From the IMG/VR virus record IMGVR_UViG_3300033066_001253, positions 13,223 to 77,222 of that record: a stretch of DNA of 64,000 nt; one strand, given 5' to 3'. Under the pieces are notes generated by a model. That model was not told where the DNA came from. It did no database searches and saw only the letters and a program-made list of their open reading frames with translations. The stretch comes from a virus (lineage: Duplodnaviria > Heunggongvirae > Uroviricota > Caudoviricetes). This document shows, piece after piece, positions 96 to 48,430 of this stretch. Made by a program: the position numbers and the translations under genes. Every line of letters begins with the position of its first letter. Within the stretch, counting starts at the first letter, position 1.

Positions 96-1049
96 ATGTC
101 CAAAAAGAAACAAATTCCCAAAATTCTTAAAGAAATAAAAAGTCACATCCCAATTGTGATGGATTATTCTTATCAGAAATCGATTTCATACAGTGCTTTT
201 AGTACTTATTATTCTTGTAAGAAAAAATGGGCTTTAAAATATAAAGATGGACATTATAAACAAGATTATAATTTAAACCTTGTTTTTGGAACTGCAATCC
301 ATAATACAATCCAAAACTATCTTACAGTAGCTTATGAAGTATCAGGAGTTGAAGCAGATCAAATAGATCTAGAAGAATACTTCCAAACCCAATTCACAGA
401 AGAATACCAAAAATCATTTAAAGACAACGGAAACAAACATTTTAGCAATGCTGCTGAAATGAGAGAATTTTATGAAGATGGAGTAAATATACTTAACTTT
501 ATAAAAAAGAACAGAAATAGATATTTTAGTAAAAGAGATTGGTATTTGGTAGGTGTAGAGATACCGATATTAGTGTCACCATATACACGTTTTAAAAACG
601 TTATATTTAAGGGTTTTATTGATCTCGTATTATACCATGAACCAACAAATAAATTTGTTATATACGACTTAAAAACATCGAGTCGTGGTTGGGTTGATAA
701 AGATAAAAAAGACGAAACAAAAATAGCTCAAATTTTATTATATAAACATTACTTTAGTAAACAATTTAATATTCCTATAGAAGATATAGATGTTGAATTT
801 TTTATTATGAAACGTAAAATCCCCAAATCAACAGATTTTCCAATATATCATATCCAGCAATTTAAACCTGCATCAGGTAAGAATAAAGTTAGTAAAGCTG
901 TTGAAAATTTGGAAAAATTTATACAAGATGTATTTGATGATAATGGTTTAAAAGATAAACAATACGAGGCTACACCTAGTGATTGGAATTGTCGTTATTG
1001 TGTATTTAAAACAGATAAGTCGCTTTGTTCTGTAGGAATTAATAAATAA
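96..1049 (+). CDS. PD-(D/E)xK nuclease, RecB/Cas4-like with Cys cluster
   Basis: 317 aa. GFIDLVLY ... VIYDLKTS resembles the RecB-family D ... (D/E)YKT core. One N-terminal Cys plus C-terminal CRYCx8C resemble the Fe-S ligand pattern of Cas4/AddB nucleases. Confidence 0.5.
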   Translation: MSKKKQIPKILKEIKSHIPIVMDYSYQKSISYSAFSTYYSCKKKWALKYKDGHYKQDYNLNLVFGTAIHNTIQNYLTVAYEVSGVEADQIDLEEYFQTQFTEEYQKSFKDNGNKHFSNAAEMREFYEDGVNILNFIKKNRNRYFSKRDWYLVGVEIPILVSPYTRFKNVIFKGFIDLVLYHEPTNKFVIYDLKTSSRGWVDKDKKDETKIAQILLYKHYFSKQFNIPIEDIDVEFFIMKRKIPKSTDFPIYHIQQFKPASGKNKVSKAVENLEKFIQDVFDDNGLKDKQYEATPSDWNCRYCVFKTDKSLCSVGINK

Positions 1050-11676: not shown

Positions 11677-13457
11677 AGAAAAAAGCATTAGAATTTATTG
11701 TAGATTGTTTAATCCATAATGATATAAATACATTTTTTTTAGTTACGGGTGGTGCTATTGTTCCTACAATTGATTATATAGGAACCAATACTAATGCTAG
11801 ATATTATTGTTTCCAACATGAACAATCAGCAGCAATGGCTGCTGAATCATATTATAGAATAACAGGAAAATTAGGAGTAGTATTAAGCACTAGTGGTCCC
11901 GGTGCTCAAAATTTATTAAATGGAATATGTGGTTGTTGGTATGACTCAATCCCATGTTTATTTATCACTGGTCAAGTTAGTACTTATGAATCTATAAATT
12001 CAATAAAATCTAATCCTCGACAATTAGGTTTTCAAGAAATGCCCGTAGTTGAATCATTTAAACCTTTTACTAAATATATCAAACAAATAAATATTAATAC
12101 AATTAAAGATGATATCTATCAAGCTATTACATCTGCTTTAGAAGGACGCCCAGGACCTAGTTTATTAGATTTTCCAGTAGATGTTCAATTATCTGAAGTT
12201 GAGGATGATTTATTTAAAATTAAAAAACCTAAATTATCTATAAATAATAACATAATATATTCTATAGATTTACTAAAAAATAAACTTTCTAATTCAAAAA
12301 GACCATTATTGTTATTAGGACATGGTATTAGATTATCGGATGCTGTAAATGAAATTAAAGAATTAATCAATAAATTAAACATACCTTTTGTTGTATCTTG
12401 GGGAGGTTTTGATTTAATTGAACATTCTCATTCTAATTTTATAGGTACTATAGGAGTATATGGTAGTAGAGGTGGTAACTTCGCAATTCAAAATTGTGAC
12501 TTATTAATTTCAATAGGATCAAGATTAGACACTAGACAAACAGGAGGAGATTTAAAAACATTCTCTCGTAATTCTTATAAAGTAATGGTAGATATTGATT
12601 TAAATGAAATCAATAAAGGAAGAGGATTAAATATTGATCTACCTATTAATTGTGATGCCAAAATTTTTATTAATTCATGTTTAAATATTTTAGAACCTAT
12701 TAATATTGAAAAAGATTGGAAAAAACAATGTTTAGATTGGAGTAACCTTAATTTAGATAAACGAGAACCTAAAGAAAATTTATTAACATCTTATGAATTT
12801 TTAGAAGAATTAAATCATCACCTTGATGATGATTCTATAATAATCCCAGATGAAGGAGGACATTTGGTTTGGTCAATGCAATCATTAAAAACCAAACCAA
12901 ACCAAAGAATATTTTCTAATTTTGGTAACTCATCAATGGGATATAGTCTTCCAGCATCTATAGGGGCATCTATTGCTACCAACAAACAAGTAATTTGTAT
13001 AGATGGAGATGGTGGATTTCAAATGAATATTCAAGAATTACAAACTGTAAAACATTATAATTTACCTATTAAAATATTTATAATGAATAATAATTGTTAT
13101 GGTATTATTAAACAATTCCAAGATACATATTTTGATTCTAGATATATTGCTACTGAAGAACAAGATTATTCTGTTCCTAATTTTATTAAAATAGCAGAGG
13201 CTTATGGTATAAAATCAATAGAAGCTAATAAAAATAATTATAAGGAAGTTATTAATTTGGCTCTCAAAGAAAAAGATAGTATATTGGTGAATGTAATTAT
13301 AGATAAAGAACAAAAATTGATACCTAAATTAGAATTTGGAAATCCTTTGGAAGATATGTTTCCATATTTAGATGATGATTTAATAAAAGAAAACATGATT
13401 ATACCAATGATACCGAGAAAAGATAATACTCAAGGATGGGTAACTTTAAATAAATAA
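11670..13457 (+). CDS. thiamine-diphosphate-dependent enzyme, acetolactate-synthase-like (YerE-like C-C branching candidate)
   Basis: 595 aa. N-terminal TGGAIVPTIDY ... FQHEQSAAMAAESYYRITGK ... STSGPGAQNL is the ThDP pyrimidine-binding domain. IDGDGGFQMNIQEL ... MNNNCYG is the GDG-x24-NN ThDP motif. Confidence 0.85.
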   Translation: MVKKKALEFIVDCLIHNDINTFFLVTGGAIVPTIDYIGTNTNARYYCFQHEQSAAMAAESYYRITGKLGVVLSTSGPGAQNLLNGICGCWYDSIPCLFITGQVSTYESINSIKSNPRQLGFQEMPVVESFKPFTKYIKQININTIKDDIYQAITSALEGRPGPSLLDFPVDVQLSEVEDDLFKIKKPKLSINNNIIYSIDLLKNKLSNSKRPLLLLGHGIRLSDAVNEIKELINKLNIPFVVSWGGFDLIEHSHSNFIGTIGVYGSRGGNFAIQNCDLLISIGSRLDTRQTGGDLKTFSRNSYKVMVDIDLNEINKGRGLNIDLPINCDAKIFINSCLNILEPINIEKDWKKQCLDWSNLNLDKREPKENLLTSYEFLEELNHHLDDDSIIIPDEGGHLVWSMQSLKTKPNQRIFSNFGNSSMGYSLPASIGASIATNKQVICIDGDGGFQMNIQELQTVKHYNLPIKIFIMNNNCYGIIKQFQDTYFDSRYIATEEQDYSVPNFIKIAEAYGIKSIEANKNNYKEVINLALKEKDSILVNVIIDKEQKLIPKLEFGNPLEDMFPYLDDDLIKENMIIPMIPRKDNTQGWVTLNK

Positions 13458-26418: not shown

Positions 26419-26493
26419 GGTCCTTTCGCCAAGTTGGTTAAGGCACTTCACTCATAATGAAGAGATACACAGGTTCAACTCCTGTAGGGACCA
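26419..26493 (+). tRNA. tRNA-Met (anticodon CAT; elongator Met or Ile-lysidine type)
   Basis: Manual cloverleaf. Acceptor GGTCCTT/AGGGACC (7 bp, one G-U). D-stem GCC/GGC. Anticodon stem CTTCA/TGAAG with loop CTCATAA. T-arm ACAGG-TTCAACT-CCTGT. Discriminator A; no encoded CCA. Confidence 0.7.
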
Positions 26494-27421
26494 CAAAAAA
26501 ACAAGTTAAAACGTATCGTCAAATCGTATCGTTGACTATAATAATTTCGGTTAGAAATTAGTTTGGGTTTAAGAAGAGCTCGTAGCTTAAATCATAGATA
26601 AGGATCAGGAGCTGTTATTAGGGGGTAATTACCTAATCGGAAAAATAAAGATCACTTGTTTTTTTACGTTCTTTGAAAAATTAAATTACTTGCTGAAGAT
26701 AAATAGAGAGCGGAAACGTGTACTTAATCATGCTAAGATGATGTTATTTATTGTAAGATATATTGGATATCAGAAGCTCCGAAAGGATGTCACTAAGCGT
26801 GTTTGAATCGCATATCATTAAATATATTCCACTTAGAAATGGACAAGTAATTTATATAAAATAGGTTAAACATTGATTCCTTGAATTATAAAGAGACTCT
26901 TAAACTGGAAAGATACCATAAGAGACGGTGGTATATGCTTTATAATCTAAAAATACTATCAGTAATGTTAGATGTGTTGTTCCCTTGAGAAAGGAATATT
27001 AAATGAAAGAGGGATACGAATTATAAAACTTAATCTCTACAACACAAATGAGCTCTCAGCAAAGTTATTACACGCTTCCCATAGAATCTGTGAAGTAAGA
27101 AGAGCAAAGTTATTTTAATGTAACTGGTGACTACACTCTTATGGAGAGGTAAGGATAATGAGAGGAATAATACGTCCTTTAATAATAATATGACCCTACC
27201 CTTTAGGAGGCCCTTATTTGGATAAGGAGAGCCTATAAAGCGAGGGTGCTAATAAAAAACAAATGTCTAAGAAAAAAATTACATATCCTTATTTTTATGA
27301 CTTAGTCATAGAGGATTATATTCTTCCTAAAAAGAAGAAAAAGAAATCTAAAAAGAAAAAGAAAAAATAGTCTTTGTTCTTAAAATAATATTTAGTATAT
27401 TTAACTTATAAATTAATAGAT

Positions 27422-28977: not shown

Positions 28978-30177
28978 ATGAAACCAGTAGAAATAGTAAC
29001 AATTAAAAATAAAATTCAATTATTCAAAAAAGAAGATCAAGCAACTTCTGTTGAATTAATAGAATTAGAAGAAGTAGGTTATGAATTAATAGCTCAAAAA
29101 GATCTATATCAAATAGGAGACAAAGCTATTCTTATTCAACCTGATTATAATGTTTCAGATATTCCATTATTTGAATCATATATTAGACCTAATGGAGACG
29201 AATCTAAATCAATGTTAGGTAAGGTTGAAGGTAAACCTAGAAGAATTAGAGCTAAAAAATTCACTCTAAGTAAAGAACCTAATGGGGATCCTGTTTATAG
29301 TAATGGAATTTTATTACCCGAATTAGAAGTTAGAATATATTTATGTGGTAAAAGAAAAATATTATTAACAGAAACAAATTTAGGAAATAATCTTACTGAA
29401 GAATTAGATATTACCAAATACGAAGAACCTGAACCAAACCAAAAAGGAGGATTAAAATCAGGTCAAACTGAAGGTAAATTTCCTGAGGGTTTATATAAAA
29501 CTGATGAAGAAAATATTAATAATCTTTGGAATTATATTGAAAAGAAAATTGGTTATCCTATTACATTAGTTGGTACTGAAAAAGTAGATGGAAGTAGTAT
29601 TACTATTGGAGTAACTCCTAAACTTACAGAAGGATTTATTTGTTCTAGAAATTTAAGAAAAAAACTTACAATTAAAAAACCAATAGGAAAAAGAAATAAA
29701 AATTTATTTGAAAAATTATTGTTTTGGAAAAAATTTGATTTAAATATCTACCAAGAAATAGATAATGAAGATGATTTTGTAAAATATGGTAAACCTTATT
29801 TAAATAAATTAAAATCAAATCACGTTAATATTATCTTAAGAGGAGAACTTAATGGAGGTAAATTAAAAGGTTCTGGAAACAAAAATAATCCAGCATCTAA
29901 AGAAGAAGCTAATATTAAGTTTTTTGGAATGGATAAAGTAAATGAATATGGAGATGCTATAAAATTACCTTATGAAGTTTTTAGACAACATATGAATGGT
30001 TTAGGTTTTCCAACAGTTAAAGAAGTATTTTGTAAAGAATTTAATTCGAAGGAAGAATTACTTAATGAATGTAATAATTATTTTAAACAAAATATGATTG
30101 AGGGAATTGTAGTTAGGACTTTAGATTCTAAGTTTAGTTCTAAAATTATGAATTTAGAATATGATAGTAAAAAATAA
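28978..30177 (+). CDS. ATP-dependent RNA/DNA-ligase-like covalent nucleotidyltransferase
   Basis: 399 aa. Motif I TEKVDGSS (KxDG), motif III IILRGELNG, motif IIIa FFGMD, motif IV EGIVVR and a motif V-like SSKIMN in canonical order. No OB domain after motif V (Rnl-like). Confidence 0.5.
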   Translation: MKPVEIVTIKNKIQLFKKEDQATSVELIELEEVGYELIAQKDLYQIGDKAILIQPDYNVSDIPLFESYIRPNGDESKSMLGKVEGKPRRIRAKKFTLSKEPNGDPVYSNGILLPELEVRIYLCGKRKILLTETNLGNNLTEELDITKYEEPEPNQKGGLKSGQTEGKFPEGLYKTDEENINNLWNYIEKKIGYPITLVGTEKVDGSSITIGVTPKLTEGFICSRNLRKKLTIKKPIGKRNKNLFEKLLFWKKFDLNIYQEIDNEDDFVKYGKPYLNKLKSNHVNIILRGELNGGKLKGSGNKNNPASKEEANIKFFGMDKVNEYGDAIKLPYEVFRQHMNGLGFPTVKEVFCKEFNSKEELLNECNNYFKQNMIEGIVVRTLDSKFSSKIMNLEYDSKK

Positions 30178-31612: not shown

Positions 31613-32404
31613 ATGAAAAAAGGTTTAATTACAATTTTAGTGTTCTTAGGATTAACATTAATTGCTTCAGCATTTCTTGTTCGTTGTGAAAGAATAGATG
31701 CAGGACATGAAGGTATTTTAGTAAAAATGTATGGGTCTGAAAAAGGAGTTCAAGACATAAATCTAGTAACAGGAAGGGTTTGGTATAATCCTATGACTGA
31801 AGAGGTGTTTGAAATGCCTACATTTGTCCAAACCTTAGATTATGATGCTTTTGATGTTAATGCTAAAGATGGTAGTAGTTTTACAGTAGATCCAACATTA
31901 TCTTTAAAAGTTGTGGAAGGACATTCACCAATTATATTCAAAAAATACCGAAAACCTATTGAAGAGGTTAGTAAAGTAACAGTGTATAATTATCTTAAAG
32001 ATGCTTTTAGGCTTCAAATGAATAAATATACCACAGATGAAATTGTATCTAATAGAGAAAAATTTGAAAATGATGTTCAAAATCATTTAACAAAGGTTCT
32101 TGCTGATGAAGGTTTTAAATTAGAACAATTAACCTCTGGATTGAAATATCCTAAAACCATAGTTGATGCTGTAAATGATAAAAACAAGATGATACAGGAA
32201 GCTATGGGAGCTAAAAATAAATTACTAAAAGATTCAATTGAGGCTCAAAGTAAAATTATCAAAGCTACAGCTGAAAAACGAGCTAATGATTTAAAACAAT
32301 CATCATTGACACCAATGTTAATTCAACAAATGTTTATTGATAAATGGGATGGTAAAACACCTCTATATGGTAATGCTCCAGTAATGTTTAAAAACGTACA
32401 ATAA
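31613..32404 (+). CDS. SPFH/band-7 (prohibitin-homology) domain membrane protein
   Basis: 263 aa. N-terminal TM. Then a pattern typical of SPFH domains, through the Ala/Lys/Glu-rich C-terminal helix (IQEAMGAKNKLLKDSIEAQSKIIKATAEKRAN). Confidence 0.45.
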   Translation: MKKGLITILVFLGLTLIASAFLVRCERIDAGHEGILVKMYGSEKGVQDINLVTGRVWYNPMTEEVFEMPTFVQTLDYDAFDVNAKDGSSFTVDPTLSLKVVEGHSPIIFKKYRKPIEEVSKVTVYNYLKDAFRLQMNKYTTDEIVSNREKFENDVQNHLTKVLADEGFKLEQLTSGLKYPKTIVDAVNDKNKMIQEAMGAKNKLLKDSIEAQSKIIKATAEKRANDLKQSSLTPMLIQQMFIDKWDGKTPLYGNAPVMFKNVQ

Positions 32405-40019: not shown

Positions 40020-40787
40020 ATGATATTAATCGGAAGTAAAGCCATAAAACATTGGTATCCAGACTTTCCACGCACCCCAAAAGATACAGATTATGCTGTT
40101 GGAGTAGATGAAAGAGGATTATACCCATACATCAAAGGAATGGAATTTTTACCAAACCCAATCTTAGATGAATTATATAAACCTCACAATGGTGTTGAAG
40201 AAATATGTTCACCAGAACATTTAACAACACTAAAAGCATCTCATTTGATGTGGAATATTAATTTCGACAAACATATGTTTGATTTGCAGTTCCTACTCAA
40301 AAAAGGAAACAAAATTGATGAAGAATTGTTCTGGAAATTATATTATTATTGGAATGAATACCATGGTAAAAACAAACGTAGTGATCTTAAGATGAATAAA
40401 GATGAATTCTTTGATAATGCTATTAATTATTCAGTTGCACAACATGATGATTTACATTTATTAATAAATCCAACTCCCATTTACACCAAAGTATTAAAAG
40501 ACGGATGTGATGTAGAATTGGATGAAAATAAATTTTACAATCTAACTCATGAAGAAAAACTTGAATTTGTTAGAGAGGAATGTTATGTAATGGCTTGGGA
40601 AAGATACAAACCTTTAGGATTCAGACATGCTTATGGAAGGATGATAAAGAAATTTTTAATTAACCATATACCTAAATTCGCAATAATATTCTTATTAGAA
40701 AATTGGATTGAATTACATAGAGCACCGTATGATTTTATTAAAAAAATAGATGAAGGATTAAAAATAAAACAATTAATAACAATATAA
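40020..40787 (+). CDS. hypothetical protein, possible Pol-beta-type nucleotidyltransferase
   Basis: 255 aa. N-terminal LIGSKAIKHWYPDFPRTPKDTDYAV loosely fits the hG(G/S)x(9-17)DhD minimal nucleotidyltransferase motif. Tentative. Confidence 0.3.
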   Translation: MILIGSKAIKHWYPDFPRTPKDTDYAVGVDERGLYPYIKGMEFLPNPILDELYKPHNGVEEICSPEHLTTLKASHLMWNINFDKHMFDLQFLLKKGNKIDEELFWKLYYYWNEYHGKNKRSDLKMNKDEFFDNAINYSVAQHDDLHLLINPTPIYTKVLKDGCDVELDENKFYNLTHEEKLEFVREECYVMAWERYKPLGFRHAYGRMIKKFLINHIPKFAIIFLLENWIELHRAPYDFIKKIDEGLKIKQLITI

Positions 40788-46445: not shown

Positions 46446-48104
46446 ATGAGTAATAAAAAACAAAAAACATTGAATGATTTTACTCCTGAAATTCAAGCTA
46501 AAATACCAAAATATATTGAAAAATATACTAAAGGTATTTTTGATGGAGGTAGGTATAATAATTTTACCAAGGAAAAAGCAGAGAAATTTATTGATTGGAA
46601 TTATGAATTGTCTGGTTATAAAAAACCCATAGTTTTAGTAGCTGAAAATCCATATGAATCTCAAATATTTTTTAATTATATTAAAACCAATGAAAAAGTT
46701 TGGGCTCCTTTATTATATTTAGGTTATTGTTTGAAAAATAACATTCCTATACCTGATAATATATTAAAACAAGATAATAAACAGTTGCGCTCTCAGTTGG
46801 ACTCTCAGTTGCGCTCTCAGTTGCGCTCTCAGTTGGACTCTCAGTTGCGCTCTCAGTTGCGCTCTCAGTTGGACTCTCAGTTGTACTCTCAGTTGGACTC
46901 TCAGTTGGGCTCTCAGTTGTACTCTCAGTTGGACTCTCAGTTGGGCTCTCAGTTGTACTATCAGTTGTGCTCTCAGTTGGACTCTCAGTTGGACTCTCAG
47001 TTGGACTCTCAGTTGTGCTCTCAGTTGGACTCTCAGTTGCGCTCTCAGTTGGGCTCTCAGTTGGGCTCTCAGTTGGGCTCTCAGTTGTACTCTCAGTTGT
47101 GCTCTCAGTTGGACTCTCAGTTGCGCTCTCAGTTGGGCTCTCAGTTGGGCTCTCAGTTGCGCTCTCAGTTGTACTCTCAGTTGTACTCTCAGTTGTGCTC
47201 TCAGTTGGACTCTCAGTTGCGCTCTCAGTTGCGCTCTCAGTATAATGATGATTATTTATTTACAACCAACATATACTCCAATTCATTATTAGCTTGGTGG
47301 AAATTTATGAAGGATGAATTTAATTTAGAATCAGAAATAGGAATTCAATTAGATTCTTGGAATGATTTATATGAAGATTCCAATATTTATTCTGCTATTT
47401 TTAGTGAATTAGTTTGTATAGTTTCAAAATATCCTAAGAAAATAACAAGAAATCAAAATAATGATTTACATAATATCGAAGAAAGTTCAATTGATTGGAG
47501 TTATTCAACTGATTTGACTAAATTTGATTGTTTTTATATAAATGGAAGAAATGTTCCTTCAAAATATTTTGAATCTATTTCTAATAAAACTTTTTCAATG
47601 GATGATTTTACAAAAGAAACCAATGAAGAATATAAATCATCTTGTATAGTTTTAATGCAAGAAAAACATGGTGATGAATATTTAGTTAATTTCTTTAGAC
47701 AAAACCTAAAAGAAATAGATACATTTGTTGATAAAAAAGATGATAAATATCTTGAAGGTACTACCAAAGGAATGAATGTTGGGGTTTATACATTGTTTAA
47801 AGGAGAAATAAATGACGAAAAAATAGCGTATGTAAGATGTTATTGTCCATCAACAGACCGAATGTTTTTCTTAGGAGTTGATTCAATACATAAAACTCCC
47901 AAAGATGCAATTGCTTCTTTATATAGAATTCCAAACAAACTTAAAAATCATATTAAATCAATTTCAAGACAAGGTGAACGTTTTAGTACTATCTTAACAA
48001 GTGAAGGTAAAAAAATACTTAAAACCTTATCAAAAGAAGAAATAGGAAATACAACAGGATTAAAAGGAGATGAATATTTTAATTTAATAAAATATGAATT
48101 TTAA
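46446..48104 (+). CDS. hypothetical protein carrying a 38-unit (R/D/G/Y/C)SQL tetrapeptide repeat
   Basis: 552 aa. Non-repetitive N-terminal (about 113 aa) and C-terminal (about 290 aa) domains flank the repeat. Confidence 0.5.
   Translation: MSNKKQKTLNDFTPEIQAKIPKYIEKYTKGIFDGGRYNNFTKEKAEKFIDWNYELSGYKKPIVLVAENPYESQIFFNYIKTNEKVWAPLLYLGYCLKNNIPIPDNILKQDNKQLRSQLDSQLRSQLRSQLDSQLRSQLRSQLDSQLYSQLDSQLGSQLYSQLDSQLGSQLYYQLCSQLDSQLDSQLDSQLCSQLDSQLRSQLGSQLGSQLGSQLYSQLCSQLDSQLRSQLGSQLGSQLRSQLYSQLYSQLCSQLDSQLRSQLRSQYNDDYLFTTNIYSNSLLAWWKFMKDEFNLESEIGIQLDSWNDLYEDSNIYSAIFSELVCIVSKYPKKITRNQNNDLHNIEESSIDWSYSTDLTKFDCFYINGRNVPSKYFESISNKTFSMDDFTKETNEEYKSSCIVLMQEKHGDEYLVNFFRQNLKEIDTFVDKKDDKYLEGTTKGMNVGVYTLFKGEINDEKIAYVRCYCPSTDRMFFLGVDSIHKTPKDAIASLYRIPNKLKNHIKSISRQGERFSTILTSEGKKILKTLSKEEIGNTTGLKGDEYFNLIKYEF
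46783..47240 (+). repeat. 12-bp perfect-length tandem repeat (NNC TCT CAG TTG) x about 38, in-frame within the CDS
   Basis: Units TCTCAGTTG plus a variable codon CGC/GAC/GGC/TAC/TGC (once TAT). Visible directly as repeated gctctcagttg/gactctcagttg strings. Confidence 0.9.
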
Positions 48105-48158: not shown

Positions 48159-48398
48159 ATGAAAACAAAAACGTTAAAAAGAGTAAATGTAGCTCCAAGT
48201 TCAACAGAAGGACATTTTATTAAAGGAGCTAAAAAGGTAATTGATTTAGATATGGTTACAGAAACGTTCCTAGTTGAAGGCCCTTCAACACTTGAAACAA
48301 AAAACCATACATCCTTAGAAATTGAAGAAGATTGTTTAATTACTTGTCAAGTAGTTTATAATCCATTTGAAAAGATGTATAGTAAATCAAGAGATTAA
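48159..48398 (+). CDS. hypothetical protein
   Basis: 79-aa ORF. Confidence 0.35.
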   Translation: MKTKTLKRVNVAPSSTEGHFIKGAKKVIDLDMVTETFLVEGPSTLETKNHTSLEIEEDCLITCQVVYNPFEKMYSKSRD

Positions 48399-48402
48399 AT
48401 TA

Positions 48403-48430
48403 GGAGAGGAGTAAAATCCTCTTCTTTGTT
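48403..48430 (+). terminator. rho-independent terminator
   Basis: GGAGAGGA-GTAAAA-TCCTCTTC hairpin followed by TTTGTTT. Confidence 0.5.

Follow-up and report, generated by a model that had tools for sequence, protein, structure and literature searches.

We analyzed a 64,000-nucleotide stretch of the Caudoviricetes virus record IMGVR_UViG_3300033066_001253 (positions 13,223 to 77,222; hereafter the window), in which the gene for a 552-aa protein carries a long array of a 12-bp tandem repeat encoding the tetrapeptide x-S-Q-L, where x is Arg, Asp, Gly, Tyr or Cys. The array lies between an N-terminal domain and a C-terminal region, the gene is followed immediately by that of a conserved 79-aa protein (the partner), and a terminator-like hairpin closes the pair (Table 1). 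The main gene and its partner are predicted to form a co-transcribed two-gene unit.

Tandem Repeats Finder (TRF) found the array to be by far the strongest repeat of the window, with a period of 12, 38.3 copies, 0% indels and a score of 654. The array reads in frame within the open reading frame (ORF) of the 552-aa protein, and the unit table lists 37 complete S-Q-L-x units (46791-47234) between two partial ones, KQLR at the start (46779) and SQ-YN at the end (47235). These results bear out an earlier, preliminary description of the locus, which had reported an in-frame array of constant unit length with non-repetitive flanks and with variation restricted to the first two bases of one codon ending in C. 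Nine bases of the unit and the third base of x are invariant with a single exception (46959-46961), and the codons at x are GAC (11 units), CGC (10), GGC (7), TAC (6) and TGC (4). TAT, which had also been listed as a variable codon, is in fact a Ser to Tyr change (TCT>TAT) in the constant part of one unit, TATCAGTTGTGC. The string of x residues contains higher-order blocks (RRD, YDG and YCDRG/YCDRR). The array stands out in composition, with 52% GC vs 27% for the genome and a third-codon-position GC fraction (GC3) of 0.75 vs 0.11 in the rest of its own gene, and its codons are rare genome-wide (CAG is 5% of Gln codons and TTG 7% of Leu codons; GAC has a share of 8%, TAC 14%, CGC 3%, GGC 1% and TGC 9%). 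Hence, with head-to-tail, in-frame units of a multiple of three bases and no indels, the window array is a coding minisatellite, or variable number tandem repeat (VNTR).

Arrays of relatives are polymorphic in copy number. Three contigs from three samples, with 0 of 366 and 1 to 6 of 2704 mismatches in the flanks (0 to 6 of ~3070 bases), have the x-strings S-RNRDY-DD-GNRN-NHDR (16 units), S-DD-NHDR (7 units) and S-DD-R (4 units). These strings interconvert purely by the gain or loss of whole units, the constant part TCACAGCTT is untouched, and the 4- and 7-unit alleles are shorter than the assembler k of 141. Protein pairs with 100% identical flanks likewise differ in their arrays. Hence, since only whole units are gained or lost, the locus behaves as a minisatellite that changes by slippage or unequal recombination, not by point hypermutation, and the recombination-prone locus raised as one possibility in the preliminary description is supported.

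A word-indexed search returned 699 homologs of the 552-aa protein, and we found a period-4 array of 3 to 52 units at the same site in 83 of the 120 best. Among loci found with the C-terminal domain as the sole query, the longest array has 57 units, so that unit number at the shared insertion site ranges from 0 to 57, and a profile search added further representatives, 35 of 133 with arrays of many unit types. The commonest unit is xSQL; xSEL, xNTL, xSSL, x[S/D/A/N]QV, x[D/A]SV, x[D/A]NV and others also occur, all sharing the order variable, small polar, polar, aliphatic. The DNA that encodes this pattern is not shared. Each array has its own constant codons for Ser (TCT, TCA, TCG, AGC or AGT), Gln (CAG or CAA) and Leu (TTG, CTT, CTG, CTA, TTA or CTC), the constant part is uniform within an array, and all x codons of a given array end in the same base, C, T or G. 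Across the 38 arrays surveyed in loci L001-L058 (938 units, the window included), GC3 is 0.51 vs 0.27 in the rest of the respective gene and is higher in 35 of the 38. Hence, copy number and codons do vary among relatives, the comparison that had been proposed as a check.

In the same 38 arrays, 82% of the within-array variation falls on codon positions 1 and 2 of x. Minor-allele counts per unit position, starting at x, are 445, 254, 11 / 30, 76, 5 / 2, 3, 2 / 4, 2, 20, and most of the remainder lies in the second codon of V-type arrays (D/A, N/D). In terms of events, the first two bases of x have undergone at least 113 changes, vs 11 synonymous and 30 non-synonymous variant types for the remaining ten positions. 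At the second base of x, 48% of units have A and 47% have G (a purine in 95% of the 938, C or T in 5%), so x codons are in essence drawn from {A,C,G,T} x {A,G}, followed by a third base that is fixed. The resulting residues are D/Y/R/N/G/H/S and rarely C in L-type (NNC/NNT) arrays and W/G/R/E in V-type (NNG) arrays. Few letters are used per array (the mode is 4, with 2, 3 and 5-7 also common); the 57-unit array has only GAT, TAT and GGT at x. Identical adjacent units are depleted (240 observed vs 320 expected, z -5.4), and the neighbor-unit and variation pattern recurs among arrays with wholly different codon sets. Hence, the array is a coding VNTR that is constrained at the level of the protein and diversified at one residue of each unit, in agreement with the earlier proposal of constrained single-position diversification rather than slippage debris. 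The suggested role for Cys in disulfides does not hold: Cys makes up 11 of ~1300 x residues family-wide, and the window protein has no export signal by eye.

The window protein itself has no match to PF20530 (DUF6745) at E ≤ 1. Homologs with 45-65% identity exceed the Pfam gathering score of 27 bits (P0005, 30.8 bits; P0063, 30.3; P0024, 29.5; P0078, 28.8), the matching region lies directly after the array, and many relatives have precomputed matches. In addition, a Foldseek search of BFVD aligned the model of the array-less homolog P0044 with a DUF6745 protein, that of Microcystis phage LMM01 (370 columns, E 3.2e-14), so in its predicted fold this homolog resembles a recognized DUF6745 protein. 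A profile of array-less members collected 5407 clusters at 50% identity, 2261 of them with E ≤ 1e-10, and invariant C-terminal residues include E394, K397, C467-P468 and R508. Pfam, PHROG, NCBIfam and PADLOC searches with the flanks, the array-less homologs and the partners gave no function, the only matches being DUF6745 and an HsdS coiled coil discussed below; PADLOC, PHROG and NCBIfam defense and anti-defense models matched neither the array-stripped main protein nor either partner type. A sequence-profile search of the PDB with the flanks gave no match, Foldseek gave no PDB structure at E ≤ 0.001, and BFVD gave nothing except another DUF6745 protein. The searchable literature describes neither a function of DUF6745 nor SQLDSQL-type strings nor tetrapeptide VNTRs in phage proteins.

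AlphaFold models the flanking domains with a predicted local distance difference test score (pLDDT) above 90 and the array as two helices (residues 104-166 and 191-262) with a poorly defined turn between them (pLDDT 45-70). The beta-solenoid of the preliminary description is therefore disfavored because helices are predicted, and the fibrous spacer named beside it is compatible with the low-confidence helical hairpin. Since the array-less homolog is modeled as a compact fold (pLDDT 90.8) with a confident short linker at the insertion site, the insert has to start and end at neighboring points, as expected of a hairpin or stalk. Since intact array-less homologs exist (P0044, P0111), the array is dispensable for the fold. 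Based on these models, we interpret the array with moderate confidence as a projection that is elongated and probably helical, and that differs between strains in length and surface string.

The preliminary description had asked whether the array is missing from relatives with an otherwise intact gene. Such array-less homologs were found, yet several of their genomes encode free-standing arrays next door. Around the array-less homolog P0044 and its partner (271.7-kb contig) are ~40 tandem mini-genes of 58-86 aa, each consisting of 'MENLNKKI', a degenerate (x-x-Q-L)n and 'KTQMKDGKFK'; each mini-gene shares its last 17 nt, read in another frame, with the start of the next. Beside another array-less homolog (L029), a series of 38 or more tandem mini-genes, each built as 'MILGKSIKDKV' + (x[D/N]SV)n + 'PKIKE', runs off the contig end, and smaller sets occur at L031, L032 and L028. 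Long minus-strand ORFs at the L029 swarm are mirror artefacts of the arrays. The unit type of a swarm equals the type fused in sister clades. Other small proteins from metagenomes (P0376, P0377, P0382, P0400 and P0404) join a short N-terminus and an (xDSV)n array to an unrelated C-terminal domain of ~65 aa, with the motif 'AY..S.F...W...NP..P...LW..G..PSFDG..WRLH.G' and no Pfam match. The window has no free-standing array mini-genes. We also considered the swarms as precursors of ribosomally synthesized and post-translationally modified peptides and recognized no modifying-enzyme domain. Hence, the array appears to be an autonomous protein module that is linked, either in cis or in trans, to DUF6745 and the partner.

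The partner is far better conserved than the main protein, with 384 homologs of 70-90% identity, all unnamed, and it shows no co-variation with the array. In one sub-family, whose C-terminus differs, the main protein is paired with a partner of ~130 aa instead of 79 aa, which aligns end to end with the short one with moderate support (hhalign E 5e-4, probability 30%). In the Sphingobacterium prophage described below, the gene pair follows the genes for repressor, antirepressor, recombination and replication and precedes those for HNH, YopX and Dam; on a 349-kb contig it is near the rIIB and endonuclease VII genes. The early-region setting thus holds for the prophage and for T4-like or jumbo contigs. 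Hence, since it sits among early and replication genes, the pair is an early accessory module and not a structural one, and the virion component considered in the preliminary description is disfavored by the position of the prophage homolog. Homing-endonuclease genes (HNH_3, LAGLIDADG) are recurrently inserted beside the main gene or the partner.

Taken together, we consider it likely that the array is an in-frame coding VNTR at a fixed surface site of an early DUF6745-family protein with a 79-aa partner, and that it forms a variable helical module selected at the protein level. Its insertion would have separated the N- and C-terminal parts, units would be duplicated and deleted through slippage in replication or through unequal recombination, changes outside x would be purged or homogenized, and selection on the protein would keep or regenerate the diversity of x. 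Folded as a long alpha-helical hairpin or stalk, it would have a seam of Leu and would expose x to solvent, one residue per helical turn, so the phage population would gain a surface of fast-changing length and residue string, presented in cis here and in trans, as free mini-proteins, in some jumbo phages. Since the context is early and turnover is rapid, a role in host takeover or counter-defense is the most likely one, and we tentatively propose that the array serves such a module, working with the small partner, as a variable surface for binding or evasion.

Several observations weigh against this interpretation. The helical hairpin has low confidence, with pLDDT falling below 50 at the turn; Gly occupies 18% of x positions in the window and up to about half in V-type arrays, which disfavors long helices, and V-type units are poor helix formers in general. 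Charge complementarity across the putative antiparallel hairpin was not found. The arrays compared are related, hence the z-scores and counts of the variation survey are inflated by shared ancestry. Array-less homologs are intact and near-identical genomes differ by as much as 16 vs 4 units, so the array is perhaps only loosely constrained. Finally, metagenome assembly can distort repeats, and the count of 38 units in the window is supported by a single assembly.

The absence of the array from intact homologs, its range of unit numbers and its changes between near-identical genomes, along with the low AlphaFold confidence within it, would also be expected of a neutral or near-neutral expansion, in which slippage creates a disordered linker without a function of its own, as proposed for many of the amino acid tandem repeats (aaTRs) of Borgs, which provide a precedent (PMC9879509). 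Neutrality does not readily explain why very divergent relatives keep the peptide pattern at the same site despite complete turnover of synonymous codons, why variation is enriched about tenfold at one residue relative to synonymous sites, or why identical neighbors are depleted. The units are also imperfect and GC- rather than A-enriched, unlike Borg repeats, and arrays exist as dozens of separate genes with their own starts and stops next to array-less homologs. Free-standing array genes make a purely neutral linker less likely. We regard neutral expansion as rather unlikely.

The third base of x and the synonymous sites are uniform within arrays and different between them, so the diversity of x has either been regenerated after collapse or been moved by conversion of single-base resolution. 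GC-rich interrupted units might better survive slippage, and patchy repair of a two-base mismatch between misaligned units might generate new dinucleotide combinations. The array could be a diversifying protein module of a kind not recognized before, a repertoire generator that works without a reverse transcriptase: whole-unit shuffling of a small set of residues and recombination within the variable dinucleotide would write a lineage-specific 'barcode' surface of one residue per turn, which the DUF6745 protein and the small partner would employ either fused or as ~40 mini-proteins, probably to bind or evade fast-evolving host factors. In that case, the mechanism that generates the repertoire would have left its signature in the systematic choice of GC-rich codons and in the uniformity of the third base. 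We consider this speculative reading doubtful.

The confinement of variation to codon positions 1 and 2 next to a fixed third base also resembles the variable regions of diversity-generating retroelements (DGRs), in which AAC codons vary at positions 1 and 2 and the third base is fixed. Targeted hypermutation of the two variable bases, by a DGR or another dedicated mutator, would moreover account for a third base that stays uniform per array beside hypervariable bases, as if the diversity of x were repeatedly regenerated. We found no second copy of the unit on either strand of the 64-kb window (best match 17-18 of 30 bases; TRF reports one array only) and no reverse transcriptase among the 20 largest ORFs (Pfam scan). 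The adenine of CAG is invariant in all 38 window units, the second variable base is A or G in nearly all units instead of any base, long arrays are limited to 3-5 codons, and near-identical genomes show unit indels only, with no point changes. Hence, targeted hypermutation is very improbable; as a DGR target the array was rejected for want of a template in the window and for its adenine pattern, and a DGR is excluded as far as the window allows.

The modal alphabet of four letters, with many arrays at about that number, raises the idea of a recognition code, in which the x-string would read a nucleic acid or another polymer as TALE or PPR proteins do, each helical turn contributing one residue. 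Binding interfaces typically contain the residues used at x (Y, W, R, D, N, H, S and G). Other alphabet sizes (2, 3 and 5-7 letters) are common in the family too, and a crude cipher test allowing any residue-to-base map gave no target above chance level in the window DNA (30 of 38, the same as shuffles). Block indels alter the strings between near-identical phages, and the conserved partner does not follow the array in its changes. All this makes a code highly unlikely.

Perfect 12-bp phasing and a GC-rich island (52% vs 27% for the genome) could suggest a function of the DNA itself, with CTCTCAGTTG as protein-binding sites (iterons, a pac or ori element) or as a structured RNA, yet homologous arrays conserve the encoded peptide and not the constant DNA, the reading frame is always retained, Rfam has no match, the array RNA folds worse than shuffled sequence (z +4.1) and the 12-bp period differs from the DNA helical repeat. 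Hence, since codons differ between arrays while the peptide pattern stays, the binding-site array of the preliminary description is refuted as a family-wide explanation, judging from the codon comparison, and we give any DNA-level function next to no credence.

It is equally hard to credit that the assembler made the repeat or its copy number: the terminal 13 units recur with identical codon order in contig L068 of an independent metagenome (sample 3300020577), the complete chromosome of Sphingobacterium sp. ML3W has a homologous array with 25 full units (and the identical protein occurs in two assemblies), single k-mers span the short alleles of relatives, and hundreds of independent homologs have arrays. 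In favor of an artefact, all other assemblies with the identical partner gene end inside or beside the array, and one relative has CGC where the window has TGC, four units before the array end. Hence, the array itself is not an artefact, and the earlier concern about assembly stands for the total only, since with the other assemblies breaking there the exact copy number of 38 comes from one assembly. A scan of IMG/VR and JGI contigs for the exact window unit gave nothing beyond the broken contig already known; a looser unit pattern gave 21 loci, few of them DUF6745-like and the others unrelated simple repeats. IMG/VR and metagenome contigs very often terminate exactly within these arrays, which makes the gene a systematic assembly breakpoint (Table 1).

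The window is ~26% GC, and its long ORFs are exclusively on the plus strand. It encodes one tRNA, an RNA ligase, a PD-(D/E)XK nuclease, a large sugar-nucleotide or glycan biosynthesis cluster, which is unusual phage cargo, and numerous small ORFs, a content suggestive of a large phage. Among the phage isolates in INPHARED, neither DNA nor protein searches gave a counterpart of the window sequence.

Table 1. Positions of the array, its gene and neighbors in the window, with features of related contigs
Feature	Sequence	Position	Strand	Basis or remark
Array-carrying DUF6745-family phage protein, 552 aa	Window	46446..48104	+	ORF list, homologs
N-terminal domain, ~111 aa, helical with one strand	Window	46446..46778	+	Kept in homologs with or without array; pLDDT 90-98
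12-bp in-frame tandem array (x-S-Q-L)n, x = R/D/G/Y/C	Window	46782..47241	+	TRF, unit table
Sole deviant unit, Ser>Tyr in constant part	Window	46959..46970	+	Unit table
C-terminal region, 287 aa: DUF6745-like part, then beta-rich domain	Window	47241..48101	+	
Conserved 79-aa partner gene, immediately downstream	Window	48159..48398	+	After main gene in 46 of 58 loci
Terminator-like hairpin closing the two-gene unit	Window	48402..48427	+	Consensus scan, pattern match only
PD-(D/E)XK nuclease	Window	96-1049		
Glycan/sugar-nucleotide biosynthesis cluster	Window	2994-23214		Several glycosyltransferases, DegT-type aminotransferase, 4,6-dehydratase/epimerase, thiamine pyrophosphate-dependent enzyme, C-methyltransferase, ketopantoate hydroxymethyltransferase homolog
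tRNA-Met(CAT)	Window	26419-26494		
RNA ligase	Window	28978-30177		
SPFH/Band 7 protein	Window	31613-32404		
DUF7275/DUF7277 protein	Window	40020-40787		
P0044 mini-gene swarm	L093/L094	2512-12001		JGI Ga0181347_1000002; ENA k141_2889069
L029 mini-gene swarm	L029	10761-18974		IMGVR_UViG_3300023242_000006
Homing-endonuclease site	L001	11505-12014		Between the two genes
Homing-endonuclease site	L095	8869-9708		After partner
Homing-endonuclease sites	L061-L063			
Contigs ending in arrays	L004/L064, L065-L068, L005, L009, L010, L012, L017, L022, L030, L038, L043, L044, L047, L051, L055, L056			

If our interpretation is true, an element that is compact, hypervariable and self-renewing is present in the early accessory system of thousands of phage lineages (the 5407 clusters of the family profile), slippage-based protein diversification joins DGRs and tail-fiber cassettes, and the array points to an unexplored phage-host interface. 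The arrays also break short-read assemblies at a predictable gene, could be used as strain-typing markers, and are a natural scaffold with one free residue per 4-aa unit. The module in the prophage of Sphingobacterium sp. ML3W provides a culturable handle.

One of the known systems closest to the array, and a precedent for such a unit within an antiparallel helical pair, is the TAEL repeat in the central conserved region of the HsdS subunits of Type IC enzymes (EcoR124I/II, EcoDXXI), a 12-bp, 4-aa unit that makes just over one helical turn of an antiparallel coiled coil and whose copy number shifts by unequal crossing-over, altering geometry (PMC3874165). Both units have 12 bp and 4 aa and end in Leu, and positions 155-235 (the coiled coil) of the PADLOC 'Specificity_I' profile match the array region (E 1.7e-7) and do not match the array-less homologs. 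In contrast, HsdS has 2-3 identical TAEL units without a variable residue between DNA-recognition domains, whereas here 38 units (0-57 in relatives) with one hypervariable residue lie in an unrelated globular protein. We rejected an HsdS identity: HsdS has two target-recognition domains with conserved helices between them, the PADLOC match is confined to the coiled coil, Pfam detects no Methylase_S or other HsdS domain, and the PADLOC match reflects periodicity and composition, not homology.

Borg aaTRs are in-frame repeats in ORFs of large mobile elements that evolve fast, arise at hotspots and recur in similar form in homologous proteins; their nucleotide repeats are perfect and A-enriched, and disorder is predicted for most of them (PMC9879509). 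Unlike them, the arrays described here are systematically diverse at two bases per unit, are GC3-enriched in nearly all of those surveyed, and have a peptide pattern that is ancient in one family. The variable regions of DGRs share with the array the diversity in the first two codon positions, the fixed third base and overlapping residues (N, D, Y, H, S, G, R and C); the array differs in that the window has no template repeat, the scanned ORFs include no reverse transcriptase, adenine specificity is absent, and its repeats are in tandem and change by unit indels. Pentapeptide-repeat proteins and other short-period beta-solenoids likewise have very short units with one aliphatic residue each and polar or variable neighbors. 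Their period is 5 instead of 4, AlphaFold gives helices for the array and not a quadrilateral beta-helix, and Pfam has no pentapeptide match.

The streptococcal M protein and the NANP/NVDP tetrapeptides of the Plasmodium circumsporozoite protein (CSP) are coding repeats that vary between strains in number and order and have been interpreted as surfaces in an arms race. The array resembles them in that both the order and the number of its variants differ between strains. Unlike these exported antigens of cellular pathogens, it belongs to a cytoplasmic early phage protein with a conserved small partner and varies at one residue per 4 aa. Each of these known systems has one aspect in common with the array and departs from it in others. 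The array is a kind of coding VNTR or repeat protein, and the probability that it is a diversifying module of a new type is not negligible.

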